Shown here piece after piece: positions 41,301 to 63,222 of a stretch of 64,000 nt of DNA. Under the pieces are notes generated by a model that was given only the letters and a program-made list of their open reading frames with translations, did not search any database and was not told the origin of the DNA. Positions within the stretch are counted from its first letter, which is position 1. Every line of letters starts with the position of its first letter. The stretch is from an uncultured bacterium (lineage in GTDB: Bacteria; Patescibacteriota; JAHJAL01), in NCBI GenBank assembly GCA_938004065.1, contig CALKWM010000013.1:2457-66456 (forward strand). The letters run 5' to 3'. Position numbers and translations under genes: made by a program.

Positions 41301-44012
41301 GAATATTTTTGACAAATCCTCGGTTTCCATGAGTTGCATGGCGGAGTTTAGCGAGAAGTCTTGGCCTTGTGAAATTGCGGTGGTTAACGCTTGATTGATG
41401 CGTTGATTGTCAGTTACGTCAGACAATAGACTGCTGGTTAAAGACATGGCGGTGTTTTTGGGGTTTTTGATATCAAAGATGAAATTTGTCGGCAGGCCTT
41501 CAATTTTGGCCAAGCCATGTTGTCCCAATTTATTGGCGATGCCGATAAACCCTTCACCGGAAAAACTATCCAAATCAAGGATCCCGTCCGGCCATCCCAA
41601 TACATTTGAATTCAGTTCTTTTAGGCCCAAATTGGCGAAAGCCAGCCCCATGGCTTCGGGGTTGTCGCCATTTTGGATAGCGATGTTCATGGCTTCCTGC
41701 AGTTTGGGAGGTAGGTTGAGATTGGGGGTAAAATTTAAAGCTGATAGGGCGGCGTCTTTGAAATCACCGGACATCATAGCGGAGATGATGGGTGTGAAAG
41801 AGCCAAATTCCAGTCCAAGTTGCTCGTCGAGGTAGTTGCCGGTAATGGATGTGATTAGTGCTTCGGGGTTGGGATTTAACCAATTGACGCTAGAAGAAAA
41901 ACCATCGGGTAGTCCCAGTTTGCCAAATACTTTTTCATCAAGCCACTGGTTGCCCATTTCGCTCATGAAGTTTTCAAATCCACCTTGGGCCAGTTTGGCG
42001 ACATCGAAATTTTTAAAACCGGAATTAAATAACTGTTCGATGGCTCCTTGGGCAAGACCTTTGAGCATATTGGTAATACTGAAACCATTTTCCGGATCAA
42101 ATGGTAGCGCTTGGTCGAGAGCGGCACCGGCCAGATCGGAGGCGATTGAACCGTAGTCTTCGTTTTGCCATTTGACTTTCACTCCCATGGTATTGGGATT
42201 GGCGGAGTCGAGTATGGGAGGACAACATGGTTGGCAAAGAGTTCCCCAGAAGATAGGTGCGGTGCAAAGGAGCATGCATATCGCTGAATTGCGATAGATA
42301 TTCCAAAAAGGAACATTGTTTTCGGTAGCGGCACCGAGACTGTATTGAGATGCGGCCATGGGACCGGCAACTGTCATCAGGTAGGCGCTAATTAATGAAT
42401 CTACAACAGCGGTGATGGATTTGCAAGAGACTATATCGCCACAGGCGGAACAGTCAGTGGATTCGTTGTATAATCCGATTTCGGAGATATCAACCGCTTT
42501 GAGGTCATAGTGAGGATTGACAACTTCCAATTCGTCTTCACCTATTTCATCGGAAGCGTATGGTGCGTTTAAACCCAGCCAGATTTTGAGGTGGGCTCGG
42601 TCTTTGTAGGGAACACCGAGATTGTCAATGTTGCCGGTCATGACATCAAAAACAAAATAAGTGGCACTGACTATTCCGCAGAGGTTGGCGGGGTTATCAC
42701 ATTTTTCCGGACTGTTTTCGATGTTTTTGCCACAGGCGGTTTTGATGGCCCCCGGGGTAGTGGCGTCTTGGATGACTTTGTCAGCTAGGTACCTTTCGTA
42801 AGTTTCGCCGTTCATTTCCATAGTTTGGAAGACGTGGTAAAGCAGGTAGTAGATTCTTTCGTCAACCTGAATGCCTTGTTTGTAGTAGCTGTTGAATTCG
42901 GCGATGGTTTGGGGCAACAATACTTTTACTTCCGCCGGGTTTTCAAATTCAAGTGGGGGTGGAAAAAATTCTTGGGTAGGCGGGTTGCCACTTTTTGGTT
43001 CAGGAATGTTATTGATTTCATTTTGAAGTTGTTGAAATTCCGGGCTGTTGGTATCCGGATTTTCAAAATATGGAGCTATTGAATCGTTGTTGATCGTTTG
43101 AGGATTGTTTTCGGGAGGATTTAGTTCGGGCGCGGGTGGAGTGCTGAGAGAGGCATAGGTTTTGGTTATGCCCAGATATTGGGCGAGTTTATTGTTGCCA
43201 TTGGTCGAAGTGGTAGATGGTTCGGTAGTAAAATTGTTTTGCAAAATTTGTCGTGAAGTATCGGTATTGAAAGCGATATTTATGTCGGGGTTATCAACTC
43301 GAGCGTCGTTGTTTTGCTGGGGATCTGAACCTTTGAGAGCGTTGGGGCCGGGAGGGCAGGCGATTAGTCCTTCGCCGATAGCTTTGGAAATAAATTCTTT
43401 GTGGGAAAGCATATCACCATTTATTTCGGCGCCAATTTCGGCTTTGATCATTAGGCATTCGAATACTTGGTTGAAATTGAAAAGCTCGGCCAGATTTTGT
43501 GATTGCTCCAAATAGTGGTCGTAGATATGTTGAGCCCAGGCGTCTTCATTGCTATTGTAATCATTTTTACTGAGATTTTTGATCTCATCAACTTTGGCTT
43601 TGGCTTTGGTAAAAATTTCGTTATTTAAATCGATAACTCTTTGAGTTTCGATCAAGGTATCAACTTTTTCGATTTCATCGTAAACGACAGTATTTAAGTT
43701 TTCTTCCAAAGTTTGGATTTCTTTGGCCCAGTCGCGGAATTTGTCGGTAATGTTGGGAGTTTCGATTTCGTCTTGGATGATATCCAGACTGTTGATGATG
43801 GTGTCGTTGGCAGAGAATTGATCGATAGTAGTGTTCTGATTGATTTCTTCCAAAAAAGGGTTAAGGTTAGGATCAATGTCATGGGAATTTGGTACCGGCG
43901 GGGTTGCGTGAACCGGTGTAAATTTCAGTTGGGGATTGGCATATGGCGAAATGGCGGCGATGAAGCAGACGAGAATCAGTTTGATGATGATTTTTTTGTT
44001 GATTGGATTCAT
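38334..44012 (-). CDS. Giant secreted/surface protein of 1892 aa with a signal peptide, Pro/Asn-rich low-complexity stretches and Cys-rich regions; function unknown.
   Basis: Uninterrupted 5.7-kb ORF. The N-terminus MNPINKKIIIKLILVCFIAAISPYA is signal-like. No catalytic motif was recognised. Confidence 0.6.
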   Translation of the reverse strand: MNPINKKIIIKLILVCFIAAISPYANPQLKFTPVHATPPVPNSHDIDPNLNPFLEEINQNTTIDQFSANDTIINSLDIIQDEIETPNITDKFRDWAKEIQTLEENLNTVVYDEIEKVDTLIETQRVIDLNNEIFTKAKAKVDEIKNLSKNDYNSNEDAWAQHIYDHYLEQSQNLAELFNFNQVFECLMIKAEIGAEINGDMLSHKEFISKAIGEGLIACPPGPNALKGSDPQQNNDARVDNPDINIAFNTDTSRQILQNNFTTEPSTTSTNGNNKLAQYLGITKTYASLSTPPAPELNPPENNPQTINNDSIAPYFENPDTNSPEFQQLQNEINNIPEPKSGNPPTQEFFPPPLEFENPAEVKVLLPQTIAEFNSYYKQGIQVDERIYYLLYHVFQTMEMNGETYERYLADKVIQDATTPGAIKTACGKNIENSPEKCDNPANLCGIVSATYFVFDVMTGNIDNLGVPYKDRAHLKIWLGLNAPYASDEIGEDELEVVNPHYDLKAVDISEIGLYNESTDCSACGDIVSCKSITAVVDSLISAYLMTVAGPMAASQYSLGAATENNVPFWNIYRNSAICMLLCTAPIFWGTLCQPCCPPILDSANPNTMGVKVKWQNEDYGSIASDLAGAALDQALPFDPENGFSITNMLKGLAQGAIEQLFNSGFKNFDVAKLAQGGFENFMSEMGNQWLDEKVFGKLGLPDGFSSSVNWLNPNPEALITSITGNYLDEQLGLEFGSFTPIISAMMSGDFKDAALSALNFTPNLNLPPKLQEAMNIAIQNGDNPEAMGLAFANLGLKELNSNVLGWPDGILDLDSFSGEGFIGIANKLGQHGLAKIEGLPTNFIFDIKNPKNTAMSLTSSLLSDVTDNQRINQALTTAISQGQDFSLNSAMQLMETEDLSKIFAINTEDAQFIKDFVDNPTSMPFVTFKNTLLNKIDFEQAALKNINFTPESLELLVDYGLNPAYSGDNAQAGQLMMAAISNSIKLDKFGIDLNKTDIEKLAYLQDYIQIVNNLPESTNPAFNNYSPYGYGYNPYAYSPELQKLSQDYSTKFGNSEPITQFHDRIVSTIDQSISDPNSDSAKAKNEISYLVAPIKISFSERVKKDELSQIDYIDTTTKPGQNGASDTQFQGVLRSLNVDLNSLEIVHSTTFEQKNNALLSPDQNTTNPDYFSSYGGTSFPSPINATYSEYFEPGEIYYAYPKVDLAEIALPGIRGNNNYHSQTGNFKLLSTTTNIIKYAQEKPIVITPITSNNQQIPGINQNLPSNIYNRITPTLPNTTSGFSQIQNILSQDPLKTAFLEKHQFSYQLPDSTYATFDNNAFLGGSGTIYNTLNSIGKSDNQAKENLSNLGVTVIAASMTGIDIASMFTDVSDQAILENKLTQLTNAMGIVKSWQTGDIETGIKSMTGFLKDNGVFDNLSNNSTWNIGPDGNIAINGVDPLKIYSDIESGNYFALLEDIPLIQDKFNINNEIRDAIGTGPEQLLDLVQNFSPQKASDTVMEIMANKITSESGLEKLAVVQELTNTLGVPPDPKNIPKLLQSDFIQKNVLQDIDPGTLGDISSIYGLVASGDITPQKAVSTIMTANFFQDAIGKEEFQSFMSDYGGIVNAALSGDPQAIANSILSSPKVADKITEWLESSELGDYFDIGGIQNLMNGDIDGFIKQTSMKFLDKHLLSKLDGPLGGLMSNSIMSILNGEFPTEAIMQFASQYLIKEFLKADVSILTNLGASFDMGLGFNVANIGIGFVGSWVNNPVAGFVFTKCKKKIAQDNIIHFLDMVLTFDRNKTAHLKYNIIMENENGEIVEAADENGFPINNPEMTNNPREYIKNYYPLQIFSDFASTIQDKIAPKSKEKFDFVWYEDRFDVLNIFVKKCEDRQNPFLTNCEDAVHIGF

Positions 44013-44476: not shown

Positions 44477-45877
44477 TTATTTTTTATTGGCGTAATATAA
44501 TATTGTGTTGGAATAACCTCTATTAGCGTCACCAAACTCGGCTAGTTCCAAATCGGACCAGGAGATTTTGGTACGATTGCGATTGCCCGGATCGTTGAGG
44601 ATTACTCCTTCTTGATCATACCCGACGGCAACGACAAAATGGCTGGGACCACCGGATGACAAATTGGGACCGCCACCAAGGACTACCGGTATTCCTTTGT
44701 CCAAATAAGTGGTAATGGTCTTTTGTTGTTGACTGAAATCAAAAACGAATTGATTTTCTTCAACGATAATATCCGGGTATTCGCTGTGGATGTTTTGGGC
44801 AGTAACTGTGATACCGGTTAAACTGCATACAGATGTTGGGTCAACGTCTTTGCCCATAAATTTTAGTACCATAGCAAGAGAGGTGCAGTAACAGCCGGCT
44901 TTTTGGATATCGGCACTGTAATCACCTTGATTAAAATACCACTCACGCGGTTTGTCCAGTGATTTGGCACCGGAGGGTGTGTCGTATGTTGGTGTTACTG
45001 CTTCGGCTTGGGTGGAAATATCGGTTGGGTAGTGTTTGTTGCCACTGCCCATGCCACCCATAGCTAGAAAAAGGACAACAATTAGAAAAATTATGATGAC
45101 GATAATGATGATGATCAAAATAACTACTACTACCGGCCAACCAACCGCGGCAGCGCCTCCGGCGGCAGCGGCAGTTCCACCAGCGGCAGCGGCAGCTCCG
45201 CCCGCTGCAGCGGCACCTCCACCAGCGGCGGCCACGGTTCCACCGGCAGCAGCTGTACCGGCACCGGCTGCTCCCGCTCCCGCGGCTCCGGCACCGGCTC
45301 CGGTTGCACCAGCAGTGCCAGCACCAGTTGCTCCCGTGCCTGCTCCGGCACCGGCTGACGGACCACCCGGTGGCATTTTGCCGGTAGGTGTTTTTGGGGA
45401 TTGCGTGCCCGGCTGACCGGGTTTTTGACCGGAACCGGGTTTGTCCGGTTGCTTGTTTTTGTCGGCATCTTCGCGATTAATCTTGCGGTTTTTGTCCGGT
45501 TGGGATTTGTCCTGGTCGGTGTCTTGTTTGTCTTTATCTTTGTCCTGTTTTTTGTCTTTATCCTTGTCTTGATCTTTTTCTTTGTCCTTGTCTTTATCCT
45601 GATCCTGATCTTTATCTTTATCTTTATCCTTTTCTTTTTCTTTGTCTTGATCCTGATCTTTTTCTTTGTCAGGTTCCTGGTCGGGTTTTTTTTCCGGAGA
45701 TGGTTGTTCCGGACTACTGGTACTTTGTGGTGAAGTGTCGGGTTGGCGGTCAAGATTGATTGATTGCGGTTCTGATCCACCGGCTGATGACGATTGTCCG
45801 CCACCTGGTGTGGAGGTACCGGATATATTTATCTCAATGTCTTTTTTTTCGATATCTTCGCGTTTGAATTTGGCCAT
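44477..45877 (-). CDS. Membrane-anchored papain-like cysteine peptidase (Peptidase_C39-like domain) with a disordered KD-repeat and Gly/Ala/Thr-rich N-terminal region.
   Basis: The N-terminus contains (KDKD/QDKD) repeats, then a GAGAGTGATGAG stretch, then a single TM VVVILIIIIIVIIIFLIVVLFLA. The C-terminal domain carries a catalytic-Cys motif AGCYCTSLAMVL and a His motif PSHFVVAVGYD. Confidence 0.6.
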   Translation of the reverse strand: MAKFKREDIEKKDIEINISGTSTPGGGQSSSAGGSEPQSINLDRQPDTSPQSTSSPEQPSPEKKPDQEPDKEKDQDQDKEKEKDKDKDKDQDQDKDKDKEKDQDKDKDKKQDKDKDKQDTDQDKSQPDKNRKINREDADKNKQPDKPGSGQKPGQPGTQSPKTPTGKMPPGGPSAGAGAGTGATGAGTAGATGAGAGAAGAGAAGAGTAAAGGTVAAAGGGAAAAGGAAAAAGGTAAAAGGAAAVGWPVVVVILIIIIIVIIIFLIVVLFLAMGGMGSGNKHYPTDISTQAEAVTPTYDTPSGAKSLDKPREWYFNQGDYSADIQKAGCYCTSLAMVLKFMGKDVDPTSVCSLTGITVTAQNIHSEYPDIIVEENQFVFDFSQQQKTITTYLDKGIPVVLGGGPNLSSGGPSHFVVAVGYDQEGVILNDPGNRNRTKISWSDLELAEFGDANRGYSNTILYYANKK

Positions 45878-48315: not shown

Positions 48316-49863
48316 TTAGTGATCTTTTTTTAGTGTATATAAGTAGTTTTCCATATCAGTGAAGTAGAGGGTAAATGATGATGGGTCGAAAGCTAGAGAA
48401 TCAATACTGTTTGCACCTTGTTGCTTTTGATCGAAATTGGTGGAGAATATTGTATCATTTTGAATGCTATCTGATTTGCGTGATGTATCAAAATAATAAA
48501 ATTGGTCGGTACTGTTGGGATAATCGCCTGGTGTAATTGTAGGGAGATATGTTGGGATAGCTAAGATAAATTCTGTATTAGATATCCAAGTTAGTTTTTT
48601 GATAAATGATTTGATCAAAAGTGGTCTGAAATATATATCATTGTTGTCATTTTTTCGAATAAACTCAATTGAAGGCAATCCTTTGTTATCTATTATTTCG
48701 GCGAGTAGTGTTTCATTATCAGGAGACCAGCTAATATCTGTAATGGTTCTGATTGCTGGAATTTCTTCAATCAAGTTGTTTTCAAAATGAAAAATAAATG
48801 CAGTATGATCTTGCGAAATAATCGCAAGTTTGGTGTTGTCGGTTGTAATTTTTATTTCTGGATTAAGAATTTTTGATGGTAGCTTATAAATATTTTGCCA
48901 TTGACTGCCATCGGGATTGGCTATCGTTAAACTATTGTGGTTTTCTCCTTCTGTGTAAACAGGAGCCCATCCTCTGCCACCACTAGGCATATCTGGATCG
49001 GGAATTGATTTTTCATCGATTGTTTGGTTTTGGAATATATAATATATTTTTTCAGAGTCTTTTGACCAGGCAATTTTGTCTGAAGGAATTGTTGAGTTAA
49101 TTATTTTTTGGGTAACTATGTCGAGGTAATATTTTTTTTCTAAAGTTTCATCGTTTTCGGTGCCGTTAAAGATAACTTTATTAAAATTTGGCGACCATAA
49201 AATATCTTTGATATTTTTGAATTCATTTGTTTCAAAAATTATTGTTTCTTGGTTGTTTTCAATTTTTTTGAATTGAAATTTATTTGAAAATGAACTATTT
49301 GCTTCGTCGAAGATGGTAATCTGTTCGATATAATGGGGTGTATTATTTATAGAATTATTTTGTAGCCCAATAACAATATTTTGGGTTTTTTCTTTGATTG
49401 AAGGAATTAGGTTGGCATCTATATTGGTAGTTTGCCAGAAATAAACAATGAAATCCTTTTGAAAATCAAGGTAGTTTTCTTTTTTAATTACTAAACTATA
49501 GTTGCCTGGTGGTAAAGATAAAAAGGTGCTTTGAGTTTGACTATAAAATTCAATTTTTGAATCTAAAAATGGACAATTAGAATAACCTTCTTGGTGAACA
49601 ATATCTGCGGTATTGCATATATAAGCTTTGGTTGATGACTGGTTGGAATGAATTAATAATTTTCCTTTATTTATTAAAGGCCAAGTAATTAATATTCCAA
49701 TAACTAGAATAATAATTCCTGCAGAAATATAAAGATAATTTTTCTTGAAAAATTCGATAATATTGGATTTTTTTTCTTTAGTATTAGAAGAGATATTGTC
49801 TGGTTGTAGGTTTAGTTTTTTCATTATTTTTATAAATGGATTAGCATTTGTAATAGAGGACAA
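48316..49863 (-). CDS. N-terminally membrane-anchored PD40/TolB-like beta-propeller protein.
   Basis: TM segment YISAGIIILVIGILITWPL, then repeated WSP(N/D)..K..F motifs (ILWSPNFNKVIF, ISWSPDNETLLA, KIAWSKDSEKIYY). Confidence 0.5.
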   Translation of the reverse strand: MSSITNANPFIKIMKKLNLQPDNISSNTKEKKSNIIEFFKKNYLYISAGIIILVIGILITWPLINKGKLLIHSNQSSTKAYICNTADIVHQEGYSNCPFLDSKIEFYSQTQSTFLSLPPGNYSLVIKKENYLDFQKDFIVYFWQTTNIDANLIPSIKEKTQNIVIGLQNNSINNTPHYIEQITIFDEANSSFSNKFQFKKIENNQETIIFETNEFKNIKDILWSPNFNKVIFNGTENDETLEKKYYLDIVTQKIINSTIPSDKIAWSKDSEKIYYIFQNQTIDEKSIPDPDMPSGGRGWAPVYTEGENHNSLTIANPDGSQWQNIYKLPSKILNPEIKITTDNTKLAIISQDHTAFIFHFENNLIEEIPAIRTITDISWSPDNETLLAEIIDNKGLPSIEFIRKNDNNDIYFRPLLIKSFIKKLTWISNTEFILAIPTYLPTITPGDYPNSTDQFYYFDTSRKSDSIQNDTIFSTNFDQKQQGANSIDSLAFDPSSFTLYFTDMENYLYTLKKDH

Positions 49864-52800
49864 AATCCGACCATCCTTCTCCTTCCTCCCAGTTTGCTTT
49901 TTTGGTTATGCTATTTATGGTAGGATCAAAAAATTTATCGATGGGTGTAGGTTCATTCGGTCCGTTGTAACCTAGTTGTTGATAACAACCCGAGTTATTA
50001 ATTATTAGATTTTTTACCCCGTCTATTTCTTGGTAACTTTTGATCGTGACATAATGACCGGAAAAACCGCCAATACCAATATTATAATAATAGTATGTAC
50101 CAACTACTACTGGTATGCCTTGTTTGGCAAGGTTAATTATTTCCTGTTTGGTGGCACCTCGATGAATACAGCTTTGTTTGTCTTGTGGGATGTGTTTTTT
50201 CATTTGTTTTTCAAGATAATCCATGTTGGTAGATTGCGATAGTGGTCTGACGCATTTTGATGAATCATTACAAGTGTAGTCATCATAAAATGATCTTTCT
50301 CCGAAACTAGTGGCAAAACCTTGTGATTGCAATAACATAAGCAAGGCAGTAGGTCCGCAACCATCATCAGTGGTTTGACAGTAGTGAGGCATTTCTCCTG
50401 GTGTAACTACAGTAGGTGTAGTGCTGGGTGTGCTACATTGTTCGGAAGTAGTTTGTAAATAGGGGTATGGGTCTTGGAAATCGGGTAAATCTATACTACA
50501 TCCATCTGGATTTGCATTTAAAGGTCGCTCAAAGTGCATCATACAACATGGACCAATATCGTCTACTGTTGCTATTTGTTGTCCGGCTCTTATTTTTGTG
50601 CCTTGAGTGATGAAAGGTTCAGTGTTTACTTCACCATAACCGTTAAATGAACCATCGGCGTCGTTTTTAACCATAATGTAGTCTTTGCCACAATAGAAAT
50701 TTTCTTTTACATATTCTACTGTTCCGGATTCAATAGCTATTACTGGCCAACTAGCACCGGTTTGACCGCAATTGTTAGGTCCAGGACCAGCTTCTCCAAC
50801 AATAAGATCAAAACCTGCGTGTGCTCTAGAGACAGGACAATCGCCTTGAGGCCGAGATGCTTTGAAGTGTCTTGGTCCATTTGGAGCTCCTTTGTTTCCG
50901 TACTCGAGAGTAGCTTCTTTGCCATCGGCGCCAATAATTGGCCAGCATCTGCCACCGGGAGGAACATCGGAAATTGTTTGCGTTTGTTCTTGACATTTTT
51001 TAATACAGTCATCAATTTCTTGTTGGGTGTATCCCGGAAAAGATCCACCATTATTACCAGTTGAGCCGGTTGTGCCACCTTGGCCACCGCAGATTTCGGA
51101 GTCGGAACCAATAATATTGAATTGTTTTTTGGCGGTAATAACTCGATTGTATGATTCTTCAATCCTATTTTTTAGTGCTTCATTTTCTCTGGCTTTGTTA
51201 GCGATGTTAGTTATTACTTCGTTTATAGTTCCGGATGTTGCAGAAACAAGCATAATGATATCATTTCCGGCATTGATAGCTTTTTCGACTCTATCTGTGG
51301 TGGAATCGTTGGTTGATAGTGATGCGCCAACAGCGTTCAAGTCGTCGGTGATTATCAGTCCGTTAAAACCATTTCGGGCTTTGTCAACAATTTCTTTGGT
51401 ATAGGCAGCGTTTTCGGAAGAAATTTTGGTATAGGTAATACTATTCATCATGATAGCTACTTTATTTCCATATTTTTGTTTTAAATCATCGAATGGTTTT
51501 ATATATTGATAAGGATCTTCACTAGATGTGCCTTTTTCATAATCGGTGTGAGCACTTGCCGGATAGCCAGGAAAATGTTTAAGTGTGGGAATAACACTAG
51601 CGAGAATCAAGCCATCAATGTAATTTGATGCTTCAGTAGTAATATCACCATCAAAAGTACGACCGTCAGCACTAATTGGACTGTCGCTTAGGTTTGGGTC
51701 TACTACTGGTGCAAGATTCATATTGATACCGAAAGATTTCATATCCTTACCGCATGATGTCATAGATGTTTTTGGATCAGACATATTGGCGGCTGATGGC
51801 AAGTTGGAGCAATTGTTTGCGGTGCTGGTATATTTAAGTCTGTTGACTACTCCACCTTCGATGTCGCTGGCGATAATTGGTTTTATTTTCAATGTGTTGG
51901 TAATTGTTTTTATTTTAGCAAGACTATTATCTTCACTGCCTCCCATCATTATGATACTACCAATTTTCAGTTTTTCTAATTCATCAGTAGTAAAATTGGC
52001 TTCGTTGACCATAAGTATTTGGCCAATTTTTTCTTCCAAGCTTAGTTCTTTACATTTCTGGCTGGATCCTTCGATGTAAAATAGTTTCCCTGGATCTTGT
52101 GAGTGGACGATATTGGTCATATATTTGGTAAAATCAGTAATTTCATATTTAGCCATTTCACCACTTGAGCCGTTATTTTTTACACCAGTATATACAGTAC
52201 CGTGATCTTCGTAGGGATCGTTGACAATAAAGGAAGTAATTTGACCAGAGGAATCTTTGGTATAACCGATAATTAGAACTATGTGGCCGTAATTGCCATC
52301 GGTATTTGATGTGCGCATGAATCCGGTAAATGCGACCATGGGAGTACCTTGGTCAATCAGGCCGGTTATTTTAGGAATGCTATTGGTGTCATATTTGAAT
52401 TCCGTTACAGTTGATCCTGTTTCGGTTGTAGCAAAACTTTGAATAGTACCTGATCCATTTCTTGTAGCGTCTTTACCGTTTAATGTTTTGTTTTGTTCAA
52501 TAGTACTCCAGACCGGTTCGATGGTGGTGTAGTAGGTGCCGGGGTCAATATCTGTACTATTGGCATAATTGACAGCCATAACTGTTGAAACGAATCCGCA
52601 ACCGGCACTTTCAATGGTGTCGACACTGTCTAGTTTGACATTGGGATATTGTTTTTGATTATAATGTTTGATTCCGGAAATATAAGTTTTGTCGTCATTA
52701 GATGTGGGACCGGAGGAGATGTCTTGGCATTGCATGTTTTCAAAAATTGCTTTTGCATAATTAACTCTTTTGGTAAATGGTGTTAGGTCGTCTGAGCATT

Positions 52801-53485
52801 CAAAAAGATCGTGAAAAGTACCAACCAAATCTTCAATTTTTGTATATTCTGGAAAAAAACTATACAAGCTTTTATATCCTTCTTCATAATATTTTTCCCC
52901 ATAAATGCTTTCTCTTGGGATAAGATAGACATTGCATAAAGCAGGTCCGGTGAATTCTTTCCAAAAAAATTCAAGTTGAGCTTGAAGGCTGTCGATAGGT
53001 TGATTGGTTGATTCGCAATAAGAAGATAAGGCATCGTGTCTGCTTCCATACCATTGGGCCAATCCGTATGCTCCGCTATCTGGGTTGAGAGCTGTAGGAG
53101 AAAATTGGGATTCCTGTTGGAAATTACCTGCTATTGCTGCAGCTTGAGTTTTGTTGAGTCCTTTGGATGTAAGAAAACTTATAACAGTGTTGATGTTTTT
53201 TCTTTGGGATTCGTCAATTGAATTACCTGTATAGGTGCAGGGGCCGGTAGATGAACCTCTAGGTCCGTATGTTTCTAGCAAACAATCCTCAACGCATTTT
53301 CGATCGGTGGGCGAAAGTAAACTATCCGGAGTCAAGCCGGTCATGCCTAACATGGCCATCATGAGAGGTAGTAGAAACATTAATATACCGCAACAGCAAA
53401 GGGTGCAGCAAATATAGAGTATATAGCGCAAGGGGTCGTCCTGGAGATTTGTTTCGTCAGGGATTTGTGGGGTTGGCTCGGACAT
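49841..53485 (-). CDS. Giant membrane-anchored multidomain peptidoglycan hydrolase, in the position of a T4SS VirB1/PrgK/CwlT-type lysin.
   Basis: The start was set at MSEPTPQ (53485) rather than the track start 53533. From N- to C-terminus:
- TM segment RYILYICCTLCCCGILMFLLPLMMAML.
- Phage-tail-lysozyme-like motif AAIAGNFQQESQFSPTA...GAYGLAQW.
- C39-like domain 1 (AGCGFVSTVM...YGHIVLIIGY...NDPYEDH).
- GH3/NagZ-like domain (LEEKIGQILMV...ASDIEGG...KHFPGY...AHTD, GLIITDDLNAVGA).
- M23/LytM-like domain (AHAGFDLIV...QQIATVDDIG...MMHFE).
- C39-like domain 2 (GCGPTALLMLLQSQG...GHYVTIKSY). Confidence 0.7.
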   Translation of the reverse strand: MSEPTPQIPDETNLQDDPLRYILYICCTLCCCGILMFLLPLMMAMLGMTGLTPDSLLSPTDRKCVEDCLLETYGPRGSSTGPCTYTGNSIDESQRKNINTVISFLTSKGLNKTQAAAIAGNFQQESQFSPTALNPDSGAYGLAQWYGSRHDALSSYCESTNQPIDSLQAQLEFFWKEFTGPALCNVYLIPRESIYGEKYYEEGYKSLYSFFPEYTKIEDLVGTFHDLFECSDDLTPFTKRVNYAKAIFENMQCQDISSGPTSNDDKTYISGIKHYNQKQYPNVKLDSVDTIESAGCGFVSTVMAVNYANSTDIDPGTYYTTIEPVWSTIEQNKTLNGKDATRNGSGTIQSFATTETGSTVTEFKYDTNSIPKITGLIDQGTPMVAFTGFMRTSNTDGNYGHIVLIIGYTKDSSGQITSFIVNDPYEDHGTVYTGVKNNGSSGEMAKYEITDFTKYMTNIVHSQDPGKLFYIEGSSQKCKELSLEEKIGQILMVNEANFTTDELEKLKIGSIIMMGGSEDNSLAKIKTITNTLKIKPIIASDIEGGVVNRLKYTSTANNCSNLPSAANMSDPKTSMTSCGKDMKSFGINMNLAPVVDPNLSDSPISADGRTFDGDITTEASNYIDGLILASVIPTLKHFPGYPASAHTDYEKGTSSEDPYQYIKPFDDLKQKYGNKVAIMMNSITYTKISSENAAYTKEIVDKARNGFNGLIITDDLNAVGASLSTNDSTTDRVEKAINAGNDIIMLVSATSGTINEVITNIANKARENEALKNRIEESYNRVITAKKQFNIIGSDSEICGGQGGTTGSTGNNGGSFPGYTQQEIDDCIKKCQEQTQTISDVPPGGRCWPIIGADGKEATLEYGNKGAPNGPRHFKASRPQGDCPVSRAHAGFDLIVGEAGPGPNNCGQTGASWPVIAIESGTVEYVKENFYCGKDYIMVKNDADGSFNGYGEVNTEPFITQGTKIRAGQQIATVDDIGPCCMMHFERPLNANPDGCSIDLPDFQDPYPYLQTTSEQCSTPSTTPTVVTPGEMPHYCQTTDDGCGPTALLMLLQSQGFATSFGERSFYDDYTCNDSSKCVRPLSQSTNMDYLEKQMKKHIPQDKQSCIHRGATKQEIINLAKQGIPVVVGTYYYYNIGIGGFSGHYVTIKSYQEIDGVKNLIINNSGCYQQLGYNGPNEPTPIDKFFDPTINSITKKANWEEGEGWSDFVLYYKC

Positions 53486-53795: not shown

Positions 53796-53810
53796 CCCGC
53801 CCAAGGCGGG
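53796..53810. other. GC-rich hairpin CCCGCC-CAA-GGCGGG downstream of the VirB4-like stop.
   Basis: Perfect 6-bp stem with the same CCCAAGG centre as the 38-bp element core. It is isolated in AT-rich DNA. Confidence 0.4.
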
Positions 53811-53900
53811 CAGGTAAGGCGGATCGAGGATGACATTTTTGTTTTGTTGATTGTTTTAAAAAGTTTGGAATGGTTTGAATGTGTTTGAAAAAAGTTTGAT

Positions 53901-55751
53901 TTACGCGCCCAGGGAGTTTTTGAGGGCCAAAACTTCTTCCGGGTTACTGGTAATGATGCGGTTTTCGGTGTAGGAGGCGACGATTTTGATTAAGACATGG
54001 TTCATACCGGCAAAGAAAATTCCTTCACCAACATTGGCTTCCAGAAGTGCCATTTTTTCACCGTCGGTTAGATGGAAAGTTTTGGCAATTAGGTCGATGG
54101 AGGCGGGGGATTGTTTGAGTAGGATTTGCATTGCTGAGTTGGAGATGATGGCTTTACCGTATTTTGATCCCAAGAAGTCTTCGACATCTTGGGAGATGGT
54201 GGTGATACCCAGGTAGTATTTACGAGATCGTTTGGTCAAGTTATGCAAAAATTTAGCGGAATCTTCGTATTGCATCAAGTTCCAGGCCTCGTCGATGATC
54301 ATGATACGCCTTTTGAGTTTGGTGCGGATTTTGGTCCAGATGAAGTGAGTGATAACAAACATGGCCACCGGACGCAAAGATTCTTCCAAATCACGGACGG
54401 AAAAGACGATCATGTTGGTGGTCAGGTCGATATTGGTGTGGTGGTTTAATAGTCCGGCGTAGGAGCCCTCGGTGTATTTTTGCAGACGACGGGCCATGGA
54501 TTCGGATCCCTGCATATTGGCCAGAACGTTTTGCAGGTCTGAGAGCAAAGGTGGGGGATTTTTATGCGAGACGGGATCTTCGGTAATGTCTTTGAGAGCG
54601 TATGCTTCCTTGATAGCGCGATCCATGATGGCTGATTCTTCGGGTGTTAATTGACCCAACATGATGCTCATCAGAGCTCCCAGTTCAACCACACTGGAAC
54701 GCAGGGCGTTTTCTTCTTCGCCTTCACTGGTTTCCGGTAAGTCGAGAGGATTGATTTTCTTTTCGGAATTGAGATTGATTGGGATGTAAGTGCCACCGAC
54801 GGCTTCACATAGGGTTTGGTATTCGTTTTCCGGATCGATAATAATGATGTCAGTTCCCAACATCAGGTAGCGTAAGCATTCCAGTTTGACGGTGTAACTT
54901 TTACCGGCACCGGAAGTGGCAAAGATGGTACAGTTGGGGTTGGCCAGATCGAAGCGGTCAAAAATTACCAGAGATTGATTGTGGCCGTTAAATCCGTAGA
55001 AAATGCCGTTGTCACTGGTTAGGTCAACGGAGGTGAAAGGAAATGTGGTGGAGATGGCGTCAGTATCCAAGTTGCGGGTGATGTACAATTCGTCATTGGC
55101 TAGAGGTAGGGTGGAATTAAAACCTTGTTCTTGTTGAAGAATGGCATTTTTAGTATAGATCAGGGCGCCACCGAGGGTGGTTTCCAAGTGATCGACATTG
55201 GCTTTGAGTTCTTTTTCACTGTCGGCGTAAACGGTAAAATACATGCCAAATAGAAAAAGTTTTTCGCTGCCTTGTTGGATACGATAGCGTAGTTCTTCCG
55301 CGTCCTGGATAGCGGTTTCCAGTTTGGGGTCGGATACTTCACCTTTTTCGCGATTGATGGCGTATGTGGCTTGCATGCGGCCGACTCGGTTGCGGAGGTC
55401 TTCCAATACGGCTTTACTTTCCTGTGGATAGATATACATACTGATGTCCATGGTGGCGTCGTAGGCGATGATGGGGGAGAGCCAGTTGGTGGTTAAAAAG
55501 CGGGGATAGGTAAAAACAAACAGAGTTTGCACGTAGCTGTTGTTGATGATGATGTAGTTGGGATTGATACGGAAAGCGCTGGGAGCGAGGATATCTTTGA
55601 GAGTGGACATACCTTCTTCGAAGACGGCACGAGCTTCTTGCAGATGTTTTTTTTCCGTTTCCAGACGTTTTTTCTCCTCCAAAGCTTTGAGTTTTTCCGG
55701 ATCTTTGGGTTTACGTTGGAAGAGGTTTTTGATTTTATCGGTTATGGCCAT
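53901..55751 (-). CDS. VirB4/TrbE/TraE-family conjugative (T4SS) ATPase, Gram-positive-like type.
   Basis: 616 aa. N-terminal region with YPRFLTTNWLSPIIAYDATMDISMYIYP. Walker A FATSGAGKSYTVK, Walker B IMIIDEAWNLM, and a C-terminal DUF87/AAA_10-like region. Confidence 0.75.
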   Translation of the reverse strand: MAITDKIKNLFQRKPKDPEKLKALEEKKRLETEKKHLQEARAVFEEGMSTLKDILAPSAFRINPNYIIINNSYVQTLFVFTYPRFLTTNWLSPIIAYDATMDISMYIYPQESKAVLEDLRNRVGRMQATYAINREKGEVSDPKLETAIQDAEELRYRIQQGSEKLFLFGMYFTVYADSEKELKANVDHLETTLGGALIYTKNAILQQEQGFNSTLPLANDELYITRNLDTDAISTTFPFTSVDLTSDNGIFYGFNGHNQSLVIFDRFDLANPNCTIFATSGAGKSYTVKLECLRYLMLGTDIIIIDPENEYQTLCEAVGGTYIPINLNSEKKINPLDLPETSEGEEENALRSSVVELGALMSIMLGQLTPEESAIMDRAIKEAYALKDITEDPVSHKNPPPLLSDLQNVLANMQGSESMARRLQKYTEGSYAGLLNHHTNIDLTTNMIVFSVRDLEESLRPVAMFVITHFIWTKIRTKLKRRIMIIDEAWNLMQYEDSAKFLHNLTKRSRKYYLGITTISQDVEDFLGSKYGKAIISNSAMQILLKQSPASIDLIAKTFHLTDGEKMALLEANVGEGIFFAGMNHVLIKIVASYTENRIITSNPEEVLALKNSLGA

Positions 55752-55869: not shown

Positions 55870-56562
55870 TTATTCACTCGTTCCGGAGATGACGTCAGAG
55901 GTTAGGGATTCGATTTTGAAAAGTTTTTGATGGCGGGAGGTGGTGGGATTGAAGTGGTTGTACATCAATTCGGTGATTTCCTGGGTGGATAGGGTAACGG
56001 CACTAAGTCCCATCGATCCCAATCCGTTGGTGATAACGTTGATGCGCTCGGAGATTTTTTCTTTGGCCAGTTGAAAATCTTTTTCTTTGACGATAATTTC
56101 GTTGGATGATGGAAAAAGTTTTTGCCAAAACCCCTTGGTGGGAGCGGATGGGGGATAATAGGAAACTACCAGGAAGAATTTTTTTTCCATGACATTGGTA
56201 ACTTCCAGCAGACGCTGGATAAAGGCGATGTATTCTTGCATTTGAATTTTCAAGAGATCGTTTTGCTGTTTGATTTCCAAATCTTTGAGTTTGGAGATGT
56301 AGTCGGTTAAATCCAGTTTTTTGGATTGGACTATTATCTGAACCGGAAATGCCAGTGAATTTAGAAAGTTTTGGTATTGGTAGATGATGGCGTTTTGTTC
56401 GTCATCGGATTTGAGATCGAAGTTGACACTGGAGGTTAGCAGGATGCTACGCAGACTGCCGTCTTTCATGATGACCAGACCGTCACGGATTTCTTTGAAT
56501 GGGATATAGTTTTGGGTGGAGTTGCGGGGGTTGTGGGATTTTTTTTTGGTTTTTTTCTTCAT
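55870..56562 (-). CDS. Hypothetical T4SS-associated protein of 230 aa, between the VirB3-like and VirB4-like genes.
   Basis: Basic N-terminus with no TM. The IPFKEIRDGLVIMKDGSLRSIL segment loosely resembles VirB4 N-terminal regions. The gene is tightly linked, with 118 nt to the VirB4-like start. Confidence 0.4.
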   Translation of the reverse strand: MKKKTKKKSHNPRNSTQNYIPFKEIRDGLVIMKDGSLRSILLTSSVNFDLKSDDEQNAIIYQYQNFLNSLAFPVQIIVQSKKLDLTDYISKLKDLEIKQQNDLLKIQMQEYIAFIQRLLEVTNVMEKKFFLVVSYYPPSAPTKGFWQKLFPSSNEIIVKEKDFQLAKEKISERINVITNGLGSMGLSAVTLSTQEITELMYNHFNPTTSRHQKLFKIESLTSDVISGTSE

Positions 56563-56700: not shown

Positions 56701-57375
56701 TTATTTACTACGAGCTATTTCGAGCATTTTTTGTTTTTTGTCTTCTTTCTGTTTGACCGCTTCTTCGTTGACCGAGGGTTGAGCTTTCGGTTTTCTGGTA
56801 AACAGGCCGGTAATGGTTGAGGAAAGTTGTTTGAATCCGGATTGGATATTGTGGGCGATGGATTTGGTGGCTTCGGAAGTGGACGGGATGGGTTTTTTGG
56901 TTGGTGTTGAGTGTTGTTCAACATTTAATTCTTCGGCTTTGGCGCGGATGTCTTGAGGAGTCATCTGGGTGTCGAGGATAAGTGATAGTTGTTGCAGTTG
57001 AGATTTAACTTCTTCCGGATGTTTGATGGCTTCAATTTCACTTTTTTTGTCTTCTTTTTTGGCCTGGGGAGCGGTTTCAAATACGGGAGGTGGTAGTTGT
57101 AGCCACAGTAAAGTTTTAGGTTTAAATAAAAACAGGACAAAATTGGCGACAAATTTGGAAAATGGTTGTTCATTGACGGGTACAAATGCAAATGCCAGAG
57201 CCATCAGTGCCACCGGGATCGAAAGGGCGTAGAAATAGTTGTTGTATCCGACATAAATATACACTACGTATATTATACCTGATGCGAAAAGCAGGTATAA
57301 AAATTGTTCGAGGGTGAGTGGACCGATAATCTGGTCCGGCATTTTGATGTTTTGTGGGACTTTGAATTGGAGCAT
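56701..57375 (-). CDS. VirB3-like small two-TM protein (PrgI/ConD/TcpE-like) with a K/E-rich C-terminal tail.
   Basis: IGPLTLEQFLYLLFASGIIYVVYIYV (TM1) and ALSIPVALMALAFAFV (TM2), followed by a hydrophilic tail. The gene sits between the VirB6-like and VirB4-like genes, as VirB3 does in other T4SS loci. Confidence 0.45.
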   Translation of the reverse strand: MLQFKVPQNIKMPDQIIGPLTLEQFLYLLFASGIIYVVYIYVGYNNYFYALSIPVALMALAFAFVPVNEQPFSKFVANFVLFLFKPKTLLWLQLPPPVFETAPQAKKEDKKSEIEAIKHPEEVKSQLQQLSLILDTQMTPQDIRAKAEELNVEQHSTPTKKPIPSTSEATKSIAHNIQSGFKQLSSTITGLFTRKPKAQPSVNEEAVKQKEDKKQKMLEIARSK

Positions 57376-57382: not shown

Positions 57383-59821
57383 TTATGTAAATATCACGAG
57401 GTCGCTTAGGTAGTCGTCTTTTTTTGTATTAGCATTGAATTCTTTCATTTTGTCAGTCATCGATTTTTTAGAGTCTTTCATGGTTTCGAGAAGTTTGGAA
57501 TCTTTACCAAAGAATTTTTCTTTGGTTTCGTTAGATGATTTGAGAATAAAATATTCCATTTGAGCATTAAGATCGTCTGCTCTTTTACCTTTAGAAATGG
57601 AGGATTTTAGTGTAGAAAAATCACCTTGAGTTTCAATATCGGCCTTTTTTGTTTTTATGTTTTGATAAACAATATATTCAGGTTCGTCTTTAGGTGTTGA
57701 TGATATTTTGCTATCAACATTTGACATATTAATATTTAACTTGGGATTTGATGCTGAATTATCGATTATTTCTTTGATTACTTTTTGTTTTGCATTATTT
57801 GCTTTTTCAAATGTATTTTGCATTTGAAGCTTGTTTAAACTGGGAAGAAAAGTACCTGATTCATCAGTTTCTAAAGCTTCGACTTTTTTGATATAGCTAT
57901 CATCAAATCCAAGGTTTCTAAGTTTACTAACCATACTGCTTTTGTTGCCGTTTTTGAGGTTTTCGCTCAGATTTTGTAAATCTAAAGATCCAACTTTATT
58001 GTTATGTACACCAATTAGATTGGAGGCATTGTTTTTGGCTTGTTTTGTAAAGTCGTCTTTAAAATGCGTTTTAAGTTCCGTCAAGTTTCTTGGGACGCCG
58101 GTAGCTTCTTTTTTATAATGTAGTTTTAGATCGTTTTGAATGTTTTGTTCAACTTTACTGGAGTCTATACCTGACTTGAGAGTTAAACCTCTTCCGGTAC
58201 CTGTTAATTCATCGTTGATACTTTCGGGAGTATAGTATCTAGACAATATATGAGAGTTAACATCTGGGTCAGAACTATCAAATTCTTTTGGTTTGGGGCC
58301 GGCCAGAAAGTCTTTGTTGTATAATAGCCAGTTATTTTCGAGAAATTTGGTGGCATCAGCATGACCGGGATGAAATTGGTTTTGGGCTCTTTGAGCTAAT
58401 TCTTTGTTCATACCGGCTAGCTCATTGAACGCATCTCCATCTCTCAATGTTTTGTCGCGGTATTTTTCAAAGTCAGGATGCTTTTGTATGTTTTTTATCA
58501 GATCGCTTGATTTTGTACCTTTGAATGGTTCGTCTGAATCTTTTGTCAACGATCTAAGAATTGAGTCTCTCAATTTGATATCTTCTTTGGTGGTTGGGTT
58601 TTGATTGAGAGTAGTTTGTAGTTGTCTGCTTTTTAGTGATGTTTCCGCTCTTTTGGAAGTTAACATTTTGTCATAAGATCTTTGACCGAGGATTTGGCCA
58701 AGTGCATTGAAATCTTTGTTCCAGCCCAATTTTTTGAAAGGTTGTATTGGGGCATGTGCAAGAGAAGATGCTCTCTCTTTCAACTGTAAAGCATTGGGGA
58801 TGTGTTTGGTGAGAGCTCCTTGCCAAAATTTCATGATCTGGCTACCGAGTCCGCCGAGCTGGAAGGGGACGATGAGAGCAGCGAGCATGATAGCGATACC
58901 GGCCAGATAGAACAGCCATTGTCGAGCAAATGTTTCCAGTCCGGAAACTATATCAGGTGCACCGGTGGTTGATTCTTCACTGGTTTGGAAAAAAGTAACC
59001 AAACGTAACAGGAAAAAAATAATGGGGGACATAAAAGCCCATTGGATAAAACCATCCATCCATTTTTGACCATAGGTGCGGGTTGGTGGAAAGAAAAATG
59101 CCAGTACTCCCAAAGGGGCGATGACGACCAGGATGTAGAGGATGATGATACGGGCTAAACTGACGATTGCCAGAGCGAGCATGACAACGGTGGGGACAAA
59201 AAGTATTAATAATGCAACGATTAAGCCCAAAATTGTGCCGGCTCCAATACCACCCATCATACTACCGATAGCCATAGCGCTCAGGAGATTTGTTACTACC
59301 GCTGTTATGGCTTTTGCTTCTGTGGTATCAATATTGGCCAAATCAACTCCGGTAATAAAAGACATCAGTTGCATGCCCAGTCCTTCACCGCTTGCGGTTG
59401 GACCGGATATCAATTCAAAAACGATAATGTCGGTAAAATCAAGAACCGCTTTACAGATGTAGAGACTGAAGTTAGCCAGCAATAATCCGGCTACCAGTGA
59501 AGGAAGGGTTTTTTTGATTTCGTATGTTTCCAGATTGAGCCGCAAGGCATTGGCGAGGGCCAGAGCCAGTAAAAAGAAAACGGCGGCGATATTGACATAG
59601 TAGATGGAACTTTCCCAACCGGAACTGATCATTTCCGAGAGCCGGACTTGGGAAGCTCCTTGCAAAAGGTAAACCGCAAGATTAGTTAAAAAGAGGACTA
59701 CACTAAGTACAACTTTGAGGGTGTCCATGAATGTCTGTGAAAGACTTTCAAGTATCGCAGTTTTAATACCGGCAACGGGCAAGATGAAAGTAATGATGGA
59801 TTGTGAAAAAATGTCTGGCAT
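57383..59821 (-). CDS. VirB6/TrbL/ConG-like polytopic membrane protein with a large hydrophilic C-terminal extension.
   Basis: Six or more TM helices in the first ~330 aa, then a ~480-aa K/D/E-rich soluble region. The gene ends 8 nt before the VirB3-like gene. Confidence 0.55.
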   Translation of the reverse strand: MPDIFSQSIITFILPVAGIKTAILESLSQTFMDTLKVVLSVVLFLTNLAVYLLQGASQVRLSEMISSGWESSIYYVNIAAVFFLLALALANALRLNLETYEIKKTLPSLVAGLLLANFSLYICKAVLDFTDIIVFELISGPTASGEGLGMQLMSFITGVDLANIDTTEAKAITAVVTNLLSAMAIGSMMGGIGAGTILGLIVALLILFVPTVVMLALAIVSLARIIILYILVVIAPLGVLAFFFPPTRTYGQKWMDGFIQWAFMSPIIFFLLRLVTFFQTSEESTTGAPDIVSGLETFARQWLFYLAGIAIMLAALIVPFQLGGLGSQIMKFWQGALTKHIPNALQLKERASSLAHAPIQPFKKLGWNKDFNALGQILGQRSYDKMLTSKRAETSLKSRQLQTTLNQNPTTKEDIKLRDSILRSLTKDSDEPFKGTKSSDLIKNIQKHPDFEKYRDKTLRDGDAFNELAGMNKELAQRAQNQFHPGHADATKFLENNWLLYNKDFLAGPKPKEFDSSDPDVNSHILSRYYTPESINDELTGTGRGLTLKSGIDSSKVEQNIQNDLKLHYKKEATGVPRNLTELKTHFKDDFTKQAKNNASNLIGVHNNKVGSLDLQNLSENLKNGNKSSMVSKLRNLGFDDSYIKKVEALETDESGTFLPSLNKLQMQNTFEKANNAKQKVIKEIIDNSASNPKLNINMSNVDSKISSTPKDEPEYIVYQNIKTKKADIETQGDFSTLKSSISKGKRADDLNAQMEYFILKSSNETKEKFFGKDSKLLETMKDSKKSMTDKMKEFNANTKKDDYLSDLVIFT

Positions 59822-60021: not shown

Positions 60022-60366
60022 CTATGCTTTGCCCGTTTGCAAGAAAGTGATGGTGAATTCAATGATCATATATGCAAGCATAATTACGATTAATCCAATA
60101 ACAGACCAGGTGATGGTGGAAACCGCTTGTTTGGAATTTTCCGGATTGCCCATGGAAGTGATGTATTGATACCCGCCATAGACGATATAGGCGATGGCGA
60201 TCAGTCCGGCCAGACCGGTCAGGGTAATGGCAAACAGATTGATAATTCCCCAAACATCGGTGATGTTGGCGTGGTTTTTGAAGGGATTGAGGCTGTCAAA
60301 ATAACTTTCCGAAGAGAGTTGGTATTCTGCCATCAGATAGATAAAACGGCCGGTGATTGGATTCAT
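60022..60366 (-). CDS. VirB2/TrbC-like pilin paralog 1.
   Basis: 114 aa with two hydrophobic helices flanking the YGGYQYITSMGNPENSKQAVSTITWSVIGLIVI core shared by all seven paralogs. Confidence 0.6.
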   Translation of the reverse strand: MNPITGRFIYLMAEYQLSSESYFDSLNPFKNHANITDVWGIINLFAITLTGLAGLIAIAYIVYGGYQYITSMGNPENSKQAVSTITWSVIGLIVIMLAYMIIEFTITFLQTGKA

Positions 60367-60390
60367 TTACTTTTTTAGATAAAAAGAAAA

Positions 60391-60756: not shown

Positions 60757-60766
60757 TTTTTTCTCC

Positions 60767-61095
60767 TTAAAAATAATATATTTTAATAAATAATAAGTAA
60801 TAAGCAATATGCAATAAGCAATATGCAAGAAGCAAGAAGTAATATGCAATATGCAAGAAACAAGAAGCAAGAAGCAAGAAGCAAGAAGTAAGAAAGTATC
60901 AAGGATCAATATTCAATATCCAATATCCAATAAGCAATATGCAAGAAACAATAAGCAAGAGACAAGAAGCAAGAAGCAAGAAGCAAGAAAGTATCAGGGG
61001 TCAATATCCAATATCCAATATCCAAGAAGCAATATGCAATAAGCAAGAAACAAGAAGTATGCGTCCAAGGTGCACCAGATGACTGGAGAAGCAAG
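60767..61095. repeat. Heptamer-periodic SSR spacer between pilin paralogs 2 and 3, containing a diverged copy of the 38-bp element at 61057-61094.
   Basis: Units AATAAGC, AATATGC, AAGAAGC (x3 runs), ATATCCA and AAGAAAC. The element variant is GTATGCGTCCAAGGTGCACCAGATGACTGGAGAAGCAA. Confidence 0.85.
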
Positions 61096-61120
61096 AAAGT
61101 ATTAATATTATTGCATGTTG

Positions 61121-63200: not shown

Positions 63201-63222
63201 AAAAATTTGATTATGAAAAAAA

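Follow-up and report, generated by a model that had tools for sequence, protein, structure and literature searches.

We analyzed a stretch of 64,000 nucleotides, hereafter the window, from an uncultured bacterium of the Patescibacteriota (lineage JAHJAL01; assembly GCA_938004065.1, contig CALKWM010000013.1, positions 2,457 to 66,456 of the forward strand), focusing on a gene for a large putative cell-wall lysin and on the type IV secretion system (T4SS) locus in which it lies. In the direction of transcription on the minus strand, this locus comprised an array of T4SS_pilin genes, TrbL/VirB6, PrgI, a TraC-like gene, VirB4, the lysin and a PEGA-domain protein (Table 1), and it corresponded to the Patescibacteria-type T4SS described in PMC12102498. 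From the N to the C terminus, the lysin consisted of a transmembrane segment, a Phage_lysozyme2 domain (PF18013; hereafter lys2), a C39_2 domain, a NagZ-type GH3 domain, an M23-fold domain and a second C39_2 domain. A preliminary description of this DNA had proposed a single open reading frame (ORF) of 1214 amino acids (aa) with six modules in this order, and the ORF listing, Pfam, Foldseek and hydropathy all agreed with it. The motifs that it quoted were all present at their places, and the T4SS position that it assumed was borne out, with the lysin gene directly downstream of virB4. This adjacency, together with conserved synteny in the locus of a close relative (L002), in about 50 Saccharibacteria loci and in Candidatus Southlakia epibionticum (hereafter S. 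epibionticum), demonstrates that the lysin is encoded by the T4SS locus.

Table 1. Coordinates of the lysin, its modules and the neighboring features in the window (E, expect value; pLDDT, predicted local distance difference test).
Feature	Position	Strand	Basis
Whole lysin ORF	49841-53485	-	ORF listing; 1214 aa plus stop codon
N-terminal hydrophobic, Cys-rich anchor, about residues 21-49	53339-53425	-	Kyte-Doolittle hydropathy
Phage_lysozyme2, phi29 gp13/CwlT-type, residues 96-251	52733-53200	-	Pfam PF18013, E 1.4e-26
First Peptidase_C39_2, papain-like, residues 273-425	52211-52669	-	Pfam PF13529; Gln277, Cys296, His401, Asp423
GH3 N-terminal (beta/alpha)8 domain, NagZ-like, residues 483-784	51134-52039	-	Pfam PF00933, E 1.8e-35
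Gly/Thr/Ser-rich linker, then Cys-containing segment, residues 801-865	50891-51085	-	Sequence; model pLDDT < 50
M23/LytM-fold domain, about residues 880-1005	50471-50848	-	Pfam, profile versus PDB, alignment, Foldseek
Second Peptidase_C39_2, papain-like, residues 1030-1214	49844-50398	-	Pfam PF13529; Gln1037, Cys1043, His1144, Asn in LIINNS
PEGA-domain protein, downstream of lysin	48316-49824	-	Weak Pfam PEGA match
41-bp tandem repeat, in the leader directly upstream of the lysin start codon	53509-53593	.	Tandem Repeats Finder; 2.1 copies, 97% matches
VirB4-type ATPase, immediately upstream of lysin	53901-55751	-	Pfam P-loop_TraG, AAA_10, DUF87
TraC-like ORF	55870-56562	-	Pfam, precomputed families
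PrgI/VirB3	56701-57375	-	Pfam, precomputed families
TrbL/VirB6	57383-59821	-	Pfam, precomputed families
T4SS_pilin (VirB2-like) gene array	60022-63894	-	Pfam PF18895 on five ORFs

The lysin was encoded by a single unbroken ORF, of 1214 aa when counted from the ATG and of 1230 aa in its longest reading, from a GTG start at 53533. A product of 1214 aa with the same sequence is annotated in GCA_036848155.1 (contig DAIUKQ010000005.1), and the identical lysin with the same neighbors was present on four contig records in two repositories. The GC content at third codon positions (GC3) was 0.24-0.36 over all catalytic modules of the lysin, with no compositional break. For comparison, GC3 was 0.25 in the PEGA gene, 0.40-0.46 in housekeeping genes and 0.55 in VirB4.

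At the N terminus, Kyte-Doolittle 19-residue windows above 1.6 were confined to residues 18-53. The anchor was conserved in the relatives P0002 and P0003, and C26, C27 and C30 were invariant in relatives. It is unusually rich in cysteine (YICCTLCCCG), and the lysin contains 34 cysteines in total. The following domain scored 93.8 bits against the PF18013 cut-off of 28.2 and was assigned to this family. A profile of the lysozyme family, compared with the PDB, matched the N-terminal lysozyme of phi29 gp13 (3csq, E 3e-14), and their ES motifs aligned. The putative catalytic residue, Glu125, lies in GNFQQES (GNxxxES motif) and was invariant in two family alignments.

The PF13529 model matched the lysin in two stretches (79 bits, E 6e-22). 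In the first C39-like domain, the N, Q, GCG, H and DP positions were invariant in seven family members and covered Q277, C296, H401 and D423. In the second, CQ, DGCGPT (C1043) and SGHY (H1144) were invariant in the family alignment, with Q1037 also present, and the third catalytic position was occupied by Asn here and by Asp in relatives. The catalytic Cys/His pairs were therefore found in both domains. The C-terminal copy was also matched by the C39-like DUF3335 model (residues 1032-1055), and its AlphaFold model resembled staphopain (Foldseek E 4.7e-4, template modeling (TM) score 0.51). When compared with the PDB, the C39-like profiles gave marginal matches to the C39-like peptidase 3erv (E 0.008-0.07) and to the phytochelatin-synthase-like Alr0975 (E 0.04). 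The term "C39-type", which the preliminary description had used for both domains, should be read as a C39-like papain fold and not as the true bacteriocin-processing C39 (PF03412), which had no match on the lysin at E up to 1. A second C39_2 protein of 466 aa (44477-45877, minus strand; E 2.3e-13, with a marginal PF03412 match) is encoded 4 kb downstream of the lysin, where it adjoins a 1892-aa ORF with no Pfam match (38334-44012, minus strand) and a PilB/T2SSE-type ATPase (35688-37505, minus strand).

The GH3 barrel was supported by a PF00933 score of 123 bits against a cut-off of 27 bits and by an AlphaFold model with a pLDDT of 90.7 and a predicted TM score (pTM) of 0.91. The best structure matches were NagZ-type, namely 5bu9 (E 1.5e-19), 4yyf, B. 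subtilis NagZ and LpqI, with TM scores of about 0.8 (Foldseek), and the PDB sequence matches of the domain were likewise NagZ-type enzymes. The B. subtilis NagZ structure among these has N-acetylglucosamine (GlcNAc) linked to N-acetylmuramic acid (MurNAc) bound, as GlcNAc-MurNAc. In a 97-sequence GH3 alignment, the invariant columns included D541 and E543-G545 (D-x-EGG), R609, K636-H637 and the nucleophile D714 in (S/T)DD. The canonical Asp-His dyad motif KHFPGHGx4D(S/T)H was missing, and the domain reads KHFPGYPASAHTDY. The dyad columns, with consensus D and H, were occupied by T647 and Y649. HMMER paired HTD (residues 646-648) with NTD of 5bu9, the loop being one residue shorter than the canonical one. 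Additionally, the domain reached 77.4 bits with the NCBIfam NagZ equivalog NF003740, far below its cut-off of 207. Per-domain searches and structure prediction thus upheld the GH3 assignment, as they did the C39-like ones; the NagZ-like character proposed earlier extended to the fold, the nucleophile and the substrate-binding residues, and not to the Asp-His dyad or the equivalog score.

The N/H-T-D variant of the acid/base motif was present in 17 of 32 lysozyme-fused GH3s among the matches listed, versus 30 of 223 sampled free-standing GH3s. Because HTD is found again in further GH3-lys2 fusions and corresponds to NTD of 5bu9, a functional variant class is favored over decay, and the N/H-T-D GH3s may form a subclass in which this Asp serves as the acid/base. 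No sequence was more than 35% identical to the GH3 domain. Recent shuffling from GH3-lys2 fusions was considered and dropped, as p-distance gave no specific affinity. Since fusion GH3s lie no nearer to the domain than free-standing ones do, the fusion may have arisen independently.

For the M23 domain, the Peptidase_M23 match in Pfam (residues 914-978) scored 27.0 bits, below the 28.7-bit gathering cut-off. The family profile matched M23 peptidases in the PDB with E from 4e-4 to 3e-3. The AlphaFold model (pLDDT 77-89) matched LytM, lysostaphin and zoocin A in Foldseek at E 1e-6 to 7e-6, with target TM scores of 0.5-0.67 overall and of 0.62-0.67 for LytM (E 1e-6). The profile comparison and the matches of the model together establish the predicted M23 fold. 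Aligned to the HxGxD and HLHF motifs of the canonical M23 domains of P0158 and P0144, the lysin kept the zinc ligands, H889-A-G-F-D893 (HxxxD) and H984 in MMHFE. Both catalytic histidines were replaced (GYGE for GYGH and MMH for HLH), and the same replacements were found in the relatives P0003 and P0187. The M23/LytM-like assignment of the preliminary description thus stands for the fold and the zinc ligands and falls short at the two catalytic histidines.

Relatives of the lysin were sought with phmmer in an exhaustive search across 1.84 billion cluster representatives, which returned only six matches below 1e-30. Word-indexed homology searches with the full protein or with residues 61-470 gave four matches each, and the family was visible only through the exhaustive search. 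The direct family (P0002, P0003, P0129, P0151, P0163 and P0180) matches the lysin in architecture from the Cys-rich anchor through the lysozyme to the first C39-like domain, and the later modules vary. After the first C39-like domain, P0002 and P0129 have Amidase_2 and then C39_2, P0003 has Amidase_2 and then M23, P0151 has M23, P0163 has Amidase_2 and P0180 has Beta-lactamase2. The GH3 domain therefore occupies the slot that is held by Amidase_2 in the closest relatives (P0002, P0003 and P0129), one of which, P0003, is encoded directly downstream of virB4.

GH3 fused to the same lysozyme domain was found in about 32 cluster representatives among the matches listed, often together with M23, GDSL, VanY or C39_2. 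At least five GH3-lys2 fusions lie downstream of virB4 in the same T4SS locus of Saccharibacteria-type genomes (L007, L009, L011/L012, L068 and L074). The loci of P0139 and P0158 read VirB6, PrgI, TraC-like, VirB4, an ORF of about 1000 aa and the GH3-lysozyme gene, beside dnaA/dnaN, and P0130 has the same flanking genes. The short contigs of P0236, P0131 and P0137 carried no recognizable T4SS genes, so not every GH3-lys2 fusion can be called T4SS-linked. P0137 (L093:3007-8346) is a protein of 1779 aa with GDSL, Phage_lysozyme2, GH3, two Beta-lactamase2, Hydrolase_2 (SleB-like) and NlpC/P60 domains; it is more elaborate than the lysin of the window, and its contig also has a transposase and a patatin gene.

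We also scanned the GTDB species representatives with a lysozyme profile built on a seven-sequence alignment, which gave 80 lysozyme loci, mostly from Candidatus Saccharibacteria. About 50 of the 80 loci showed VirB6/PrgI, TraC-like and VirB4 genes, a gap of about 3 kb and then the lysozyme (lys2) ORF; in loci with gene calls, the gap corresponded to an ORF of about 1000 aa. The architectures included GH3-lys2 in L068 and GH3-lys2-C39_2 in L074 (Candidatus Saccharimonadales), as well as GH73-lys2-M23, lys2-Amidase_2, lys2-Amidase_3, lys2-M23, GDSL-lys2(-M23), lys2-C39_2 and lys2 alone. T4SS-linked lys2 proteins thus draw on GH3, GH73, Amidase_2, Amidase_3, M23, C39_2 and GDSL.

Judged from these domain matches, all five module types of the lysin belong to a shared, shuffled repertoire in which GH3 is recurrent at this genomic position, and what is unique to the lysin is the exact chain of five modules with a duplicated C39_2 domain. 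The preliminary description had called the module combination unusual; this is true of the five-module chain and not of GH3 at this position, given the fusions described above, one of them GH3-lysozyme-C39_2. Among the characterized T4SS lysins (VirB1, PrgK, TraG and CwlT), none is known to carry GH3, and none with GH3 was mentioned in the literature searched. Similarly, no prior description of GH3 in PF18013 lysins of T4SS loci was found in the literature searched, including the supplements of PMC12102498.

The lysin differed strongly from its T4SS neighbors in conservation. Identity to locus L002 of the close relative was 90% for VirB4, 84% for the TraC-like protein and 63% for PrgI, compared to 29-39% for the lysin domains, and the middle module of the L002 lysin differs from that of the window. 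VirB4 was about 48-51% identical to Saccharibacteria-type VirB4 proteins, L068 and L074 being named loci among these; this identity and the gene arrangement are the basis for calling the locus Patescibacteria-type. The similarity within the lysin was mosaic: the lysozyme was 71% identical to that of P0002 and 29% identical to those of P0003 and P0129, and the second C39 domain was nearest to that of P0129. These comparisons mark the lysin as a hypervariable and recombining gene within a conserved locus.

Among the neighboring genes, the PEGA gene is a conserved partner of the lysin: the hydrolase is likewise followed by a PEGA gene in L003-L005 and in S. epibionticum, where it is SEML1_0005. 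A separate TraC-like ORF (about 230-330 aa) always precedes the VirB4 gene in the window and in the Saccharibacteria loci L009, L011 and L018-L090, and it looks like a conserved split of the N-terminal region of VirB4. Each copy of the 41-bp repeat holds the inverted repeat TGCGCC-TTG-GGCGCA, and a comparable hairpin (CCCGCC-TTGG-GCGGG) follows virB4 at about 53805-53819. The repeat and the hairpins, within the 385-bp spacer between virB4 and the lysin gene, could form a regulatory or attenuator element. The remaining window encodes chromosomal housekeeping functions (FtsK, RNase J, PNPase, PolA, ValRS, a Mur ligase and GlmS). The GC skew of the plus strand was strongly positive throughout positions 1-64000, ranging from +0.06 to +0.48 in 2-kb steps, and climbed monotonically when cumulated. 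Most long genes are on the minus strand, and the coding-strand skew tracks the DNA strand, not gene orientation; because the skew follows the DNA strand, most genes would occupy the C-rich, nominally lagging strand.

With moderate confidence, we interpret the lysin as the peptidoglycan-hydrolase component of a Patescibacteria-type (monoderm-like) T4SS locus, module-shuffled around a phi29-gp13/CwlT-type lysozyme core, with a role in wall opening and fragment processing. In the mechanism that we propose, the N-terminal anchor would hold the protein in the membrane of the producer, with the linked catalytic modules, about 1150 residues in all, on the outer side. The lysozyme module would cleave the glycan backbone, and the two papain-like modules, possibly with the atypical M23 domain, would cleave stem peptides or cross-links; the combined lysozyme and peptidase action would open the wall for the passage of the T4SS and the pilus. 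NagZ-type GH3 enzymes are exo-acting and strip terminal GlcNAc, and for this reason the GH3 module more likely trims muramidase products than breaches the wall. It would remove the non-reducing-end GlcNAc exposed by the muramidase cut, releasing free GlcNAc and MurNAc-peptides, and the Amidase_2 domain in the same slot of close relatives would process the same fragments. By this analogy, the central slot would be occupied by a module for fragment processing or salvage rather than for breaching the wall.

Several points weigh against this interpretation. The hydrolytic activity of every module is predicted from fold and conserved residues, and the N-terminal anchoring in the producer's membrane is deduced from hydropathy. 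Both catalytic histidines of the M23 domain are replaced, the GH3 domain lacks the canonical Asp-His dyad and falls below the NagZ equivalog cut-off, and a Pfam scan found no cell-wall-binding domain in the lysin. To our knowledge, no peptidoglycan substrate is established for C39_2 domains, which might process proteins instead. GlmS is encoded in the window, so GlcNAc salvage is not obviously required. Moreover, PrgK, the best-studied multi-domain T4SS lysin, has three predicted hydrolase domains, of which a single one is active; its LytM and CHAP domains have a regulatory role (PMC11323569).

There appears to be a roughly even chance that, at the contact zone, the lysin acts on the host wall in addition to the producer's own, because the lysin diverges far faster than the neighboring T4SS core genes. 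This hypervariability favors a host-facing role, whereas the membrane anchor and all characterized precedents favor the producer's own wall. The preliminary description had taken the combined cutting of glycan, stem peptide and possibly cross-bridge as suited to breaching a foreign wall; the hypervariability fits the host-facing part of this idea, and the exo-acting GH3 module speaks for fragment processing instead. We know of no characterized T4SS lysin that acts on any wall other than that of its producer.

A stronger form of host-directed action, which we regard as somewhat unlikely, is that the lysin serves mainly as a weapon or feeding enzyme that would dismantle host peptidoglycan at the attachment site into importable units, with module swaps tracking the chemistry of the host wall. 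A hypervariable, mosaic lysin beside a 90% conserved VirB4 would be expected in this case, and the lys2 and M23 pair has the architecture of gp13, a tail-tip enzyme of phi29 that attacks walls from the outer side; the lysin, however, carries an N-terminal membrane anchor and has no evident secretion or release signal, and the own-wall precedents noted above also argue against such a role. The GH3 and Amidase_2 alternatives in the central slot resemble the textbook extracellular NagZ/AmiE muropeptide-salvage pair of B. subtilis and would suit feeding, but GlmS is present. The T4SS of S. epibionticum has no recognizable relaxase or coupling protein and is essential for epibiotic growth (PMC10633639), which is consistent with a host-directed function, although essentiality in co-culture does not tell which wall is targeted.

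It is quite improbable that the lysin is a PrgK-like, self-regulated enzyme in which only the lysozyme is catalytically relevant, cutting the wall of the producer itself during T4SS assembly. Under this model, the M23-like domain, at least one C39-like domain and perhaps GH3 would have no catalytic activity and would serve in binding, regulation or oligomerization. In PrgK, the LytM domain is degenerate and the CHAP domain inactive, and both down-regulate the muramidase (PMC11323569). In the M23 domain of the lysin, Glu and Met replace the two catalytic histidines, which fits this model, but the domain retains all three zinc ligands, unlike PrgK LytM. Likewise, the acid/base motif of GH3 is non-canonical, but the domain keeps its nucleophile and all substrate-binding residues, and its HTD recurs in fusions and matches NTD of 5bu9. 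The invariance of Gln/Cys/His/Asp(Asn) in both papain-like domains across relatives also argues against inactive modules. Finally, an artefact in which chimeric assembly placed an unrelated GH3 gene into the lysin gene is highly improbable: the GH3 domain has no close relative and the exact five-module architecture forms a singleton cluster, but the identical protein occurs with unchanged neighbors on the four contig records from two repositories, both flanks of GH3 derive from one gene family and are contiguous in P0002 and P0129, two in-frame junctions would be required, GC3 is uniform across the catalytic modules, and the lys2-GH3-M23 order is found elsewhere, in P0236 and P0137.

Patescibacteria account for much of bacterial diversity, and their usual way of life is attachment to a bacterial host. 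In the sole genetically tractable species of the group, the T4SS locus, including its hydrolases, is essential. The hydrolase slot of this locus draws on a shared pool of shuffled modules, repeatedly with an exo-acting NagZ-type GH3, and the gene outpaces the T4SS core in divergence. The GH3 slot and the hypervariability together offer a concrete way to approach whether these enzymes are directed at the host wall and whether they feed the epibiont, and the lysin of the window, as an extreme all-in-one example, would be useful for biochemical dissection. We also put forward, as a rather unlikely extension, that the T4SS lysins of Patescibacteria are fast-evolving, module-swapping determinants of host range, comparable to phage tail lysins and endolysins, that would couple the opening of the host wall at the T4SS contact site to the harvest of GlcNAc and MurNAc-peptides. 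The GH3/amidase slot would make them extracellular enzymes of muropeptide catabolism, with the N/H-T-D GH3s as a distinct, carboxylate-using hydrolytic subclass for this role.

Compared with known systems, the lysin of this tiny, episymbiotic-type bacterium is an unusually large and elaborate example of the mix-and-match hydrolases of Patescibacteria T4SS loci, not a new kind of system. Its GH3 domain has the fold of B. subtilis NagZ/YbbD, M. tuberculosis LpqI and 5bu9 (TM score about 0.8) and their nucleophile Asp, together with the substrate-binding residues D-x-EGG, R and KH, and YbbD and LpqI are also extracytoplasmic. Unlike these NagZ-type enzymes, it has HTD for the Asp-His dyad, scores far below the NCBIfam NagZ cut-off and sits within a multi-domain lysin. 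The lysin resembles phi29 gp13 in combining a homologous N-terminal lysozyme (E 3e-14) with an M23 endopeptidase in one protein, whereas phi29 gp13 is a soluble two-module phage tail protein with no GH3, papain-like domains or anchor. With PrgK (pCF10), TraG (pIP501) and CwlT (ICEBs1), it shares an N-terminal anchor, a glycan hydrolase with M23/LytM and Cys-peptidase modules, and a gene position in the T4SS cluster (PMC11323569, PMC12102498). Unlike the lysin, these three proteins are not known to contain a GH3 domain, and PrgK has an SLT-type domain instead of PF18013, CHAP or NlpC/P60 instead of C39_2, and a LytM domain that has lost the metal site retained in the lysin.

The closest parallels were found within the Patescibacteria themselves. 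In S. epibionticum ML1, the order is PrgI (SEML1_0010), SEML1_0009, VirB4 (SEML1_0008), SEML1_0007, SEML1_0006 and PEGA (SEML1_0005), and the genes SEML1_0005-0010 of this locus were scored essential by transposon sequencing (Wang et al. 2023, PMC10633639, Tables S1/S2). SEML1_0007 is a protein of 1113 aa with a C-terminal M15B-type peptidase, and SEML1_0006, of 643 aa, combines GH73-like, PF18013 and cysteine proteinase domains (PMC10633639). The lysin occupies the same locus position as these two, between VirB4 and the PEGA protein, and like SEML1_0006 it has a PF18013 core, a cysteine-peptidase domain and a second glycosidase. In SEML1_0006, however, this glycosidase is a GH73-like endo-glucosaminidase rather than GH3, and the 1113-aa M15B protein separates it from VirB4, whereas the lysin directly follows VirB4 and holds five modules in one chain. 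The uncharacterized Saccharibacteria GH3-Phage_lysozyme2 fusions differ from the lysin in having a signal peptide instead of the Cys-rich anchor, in comprising two or three modules and, in most cases, in placing GH3 before the lysozyme; the fusions in P0139, P0158, P0130, L068 and L074 nevertheless share its module types and its T4SS locus, and some Saccharibacteria GH3-lys2 fusions also share its HTD/NTD variant of the GH3 acid/base motif.

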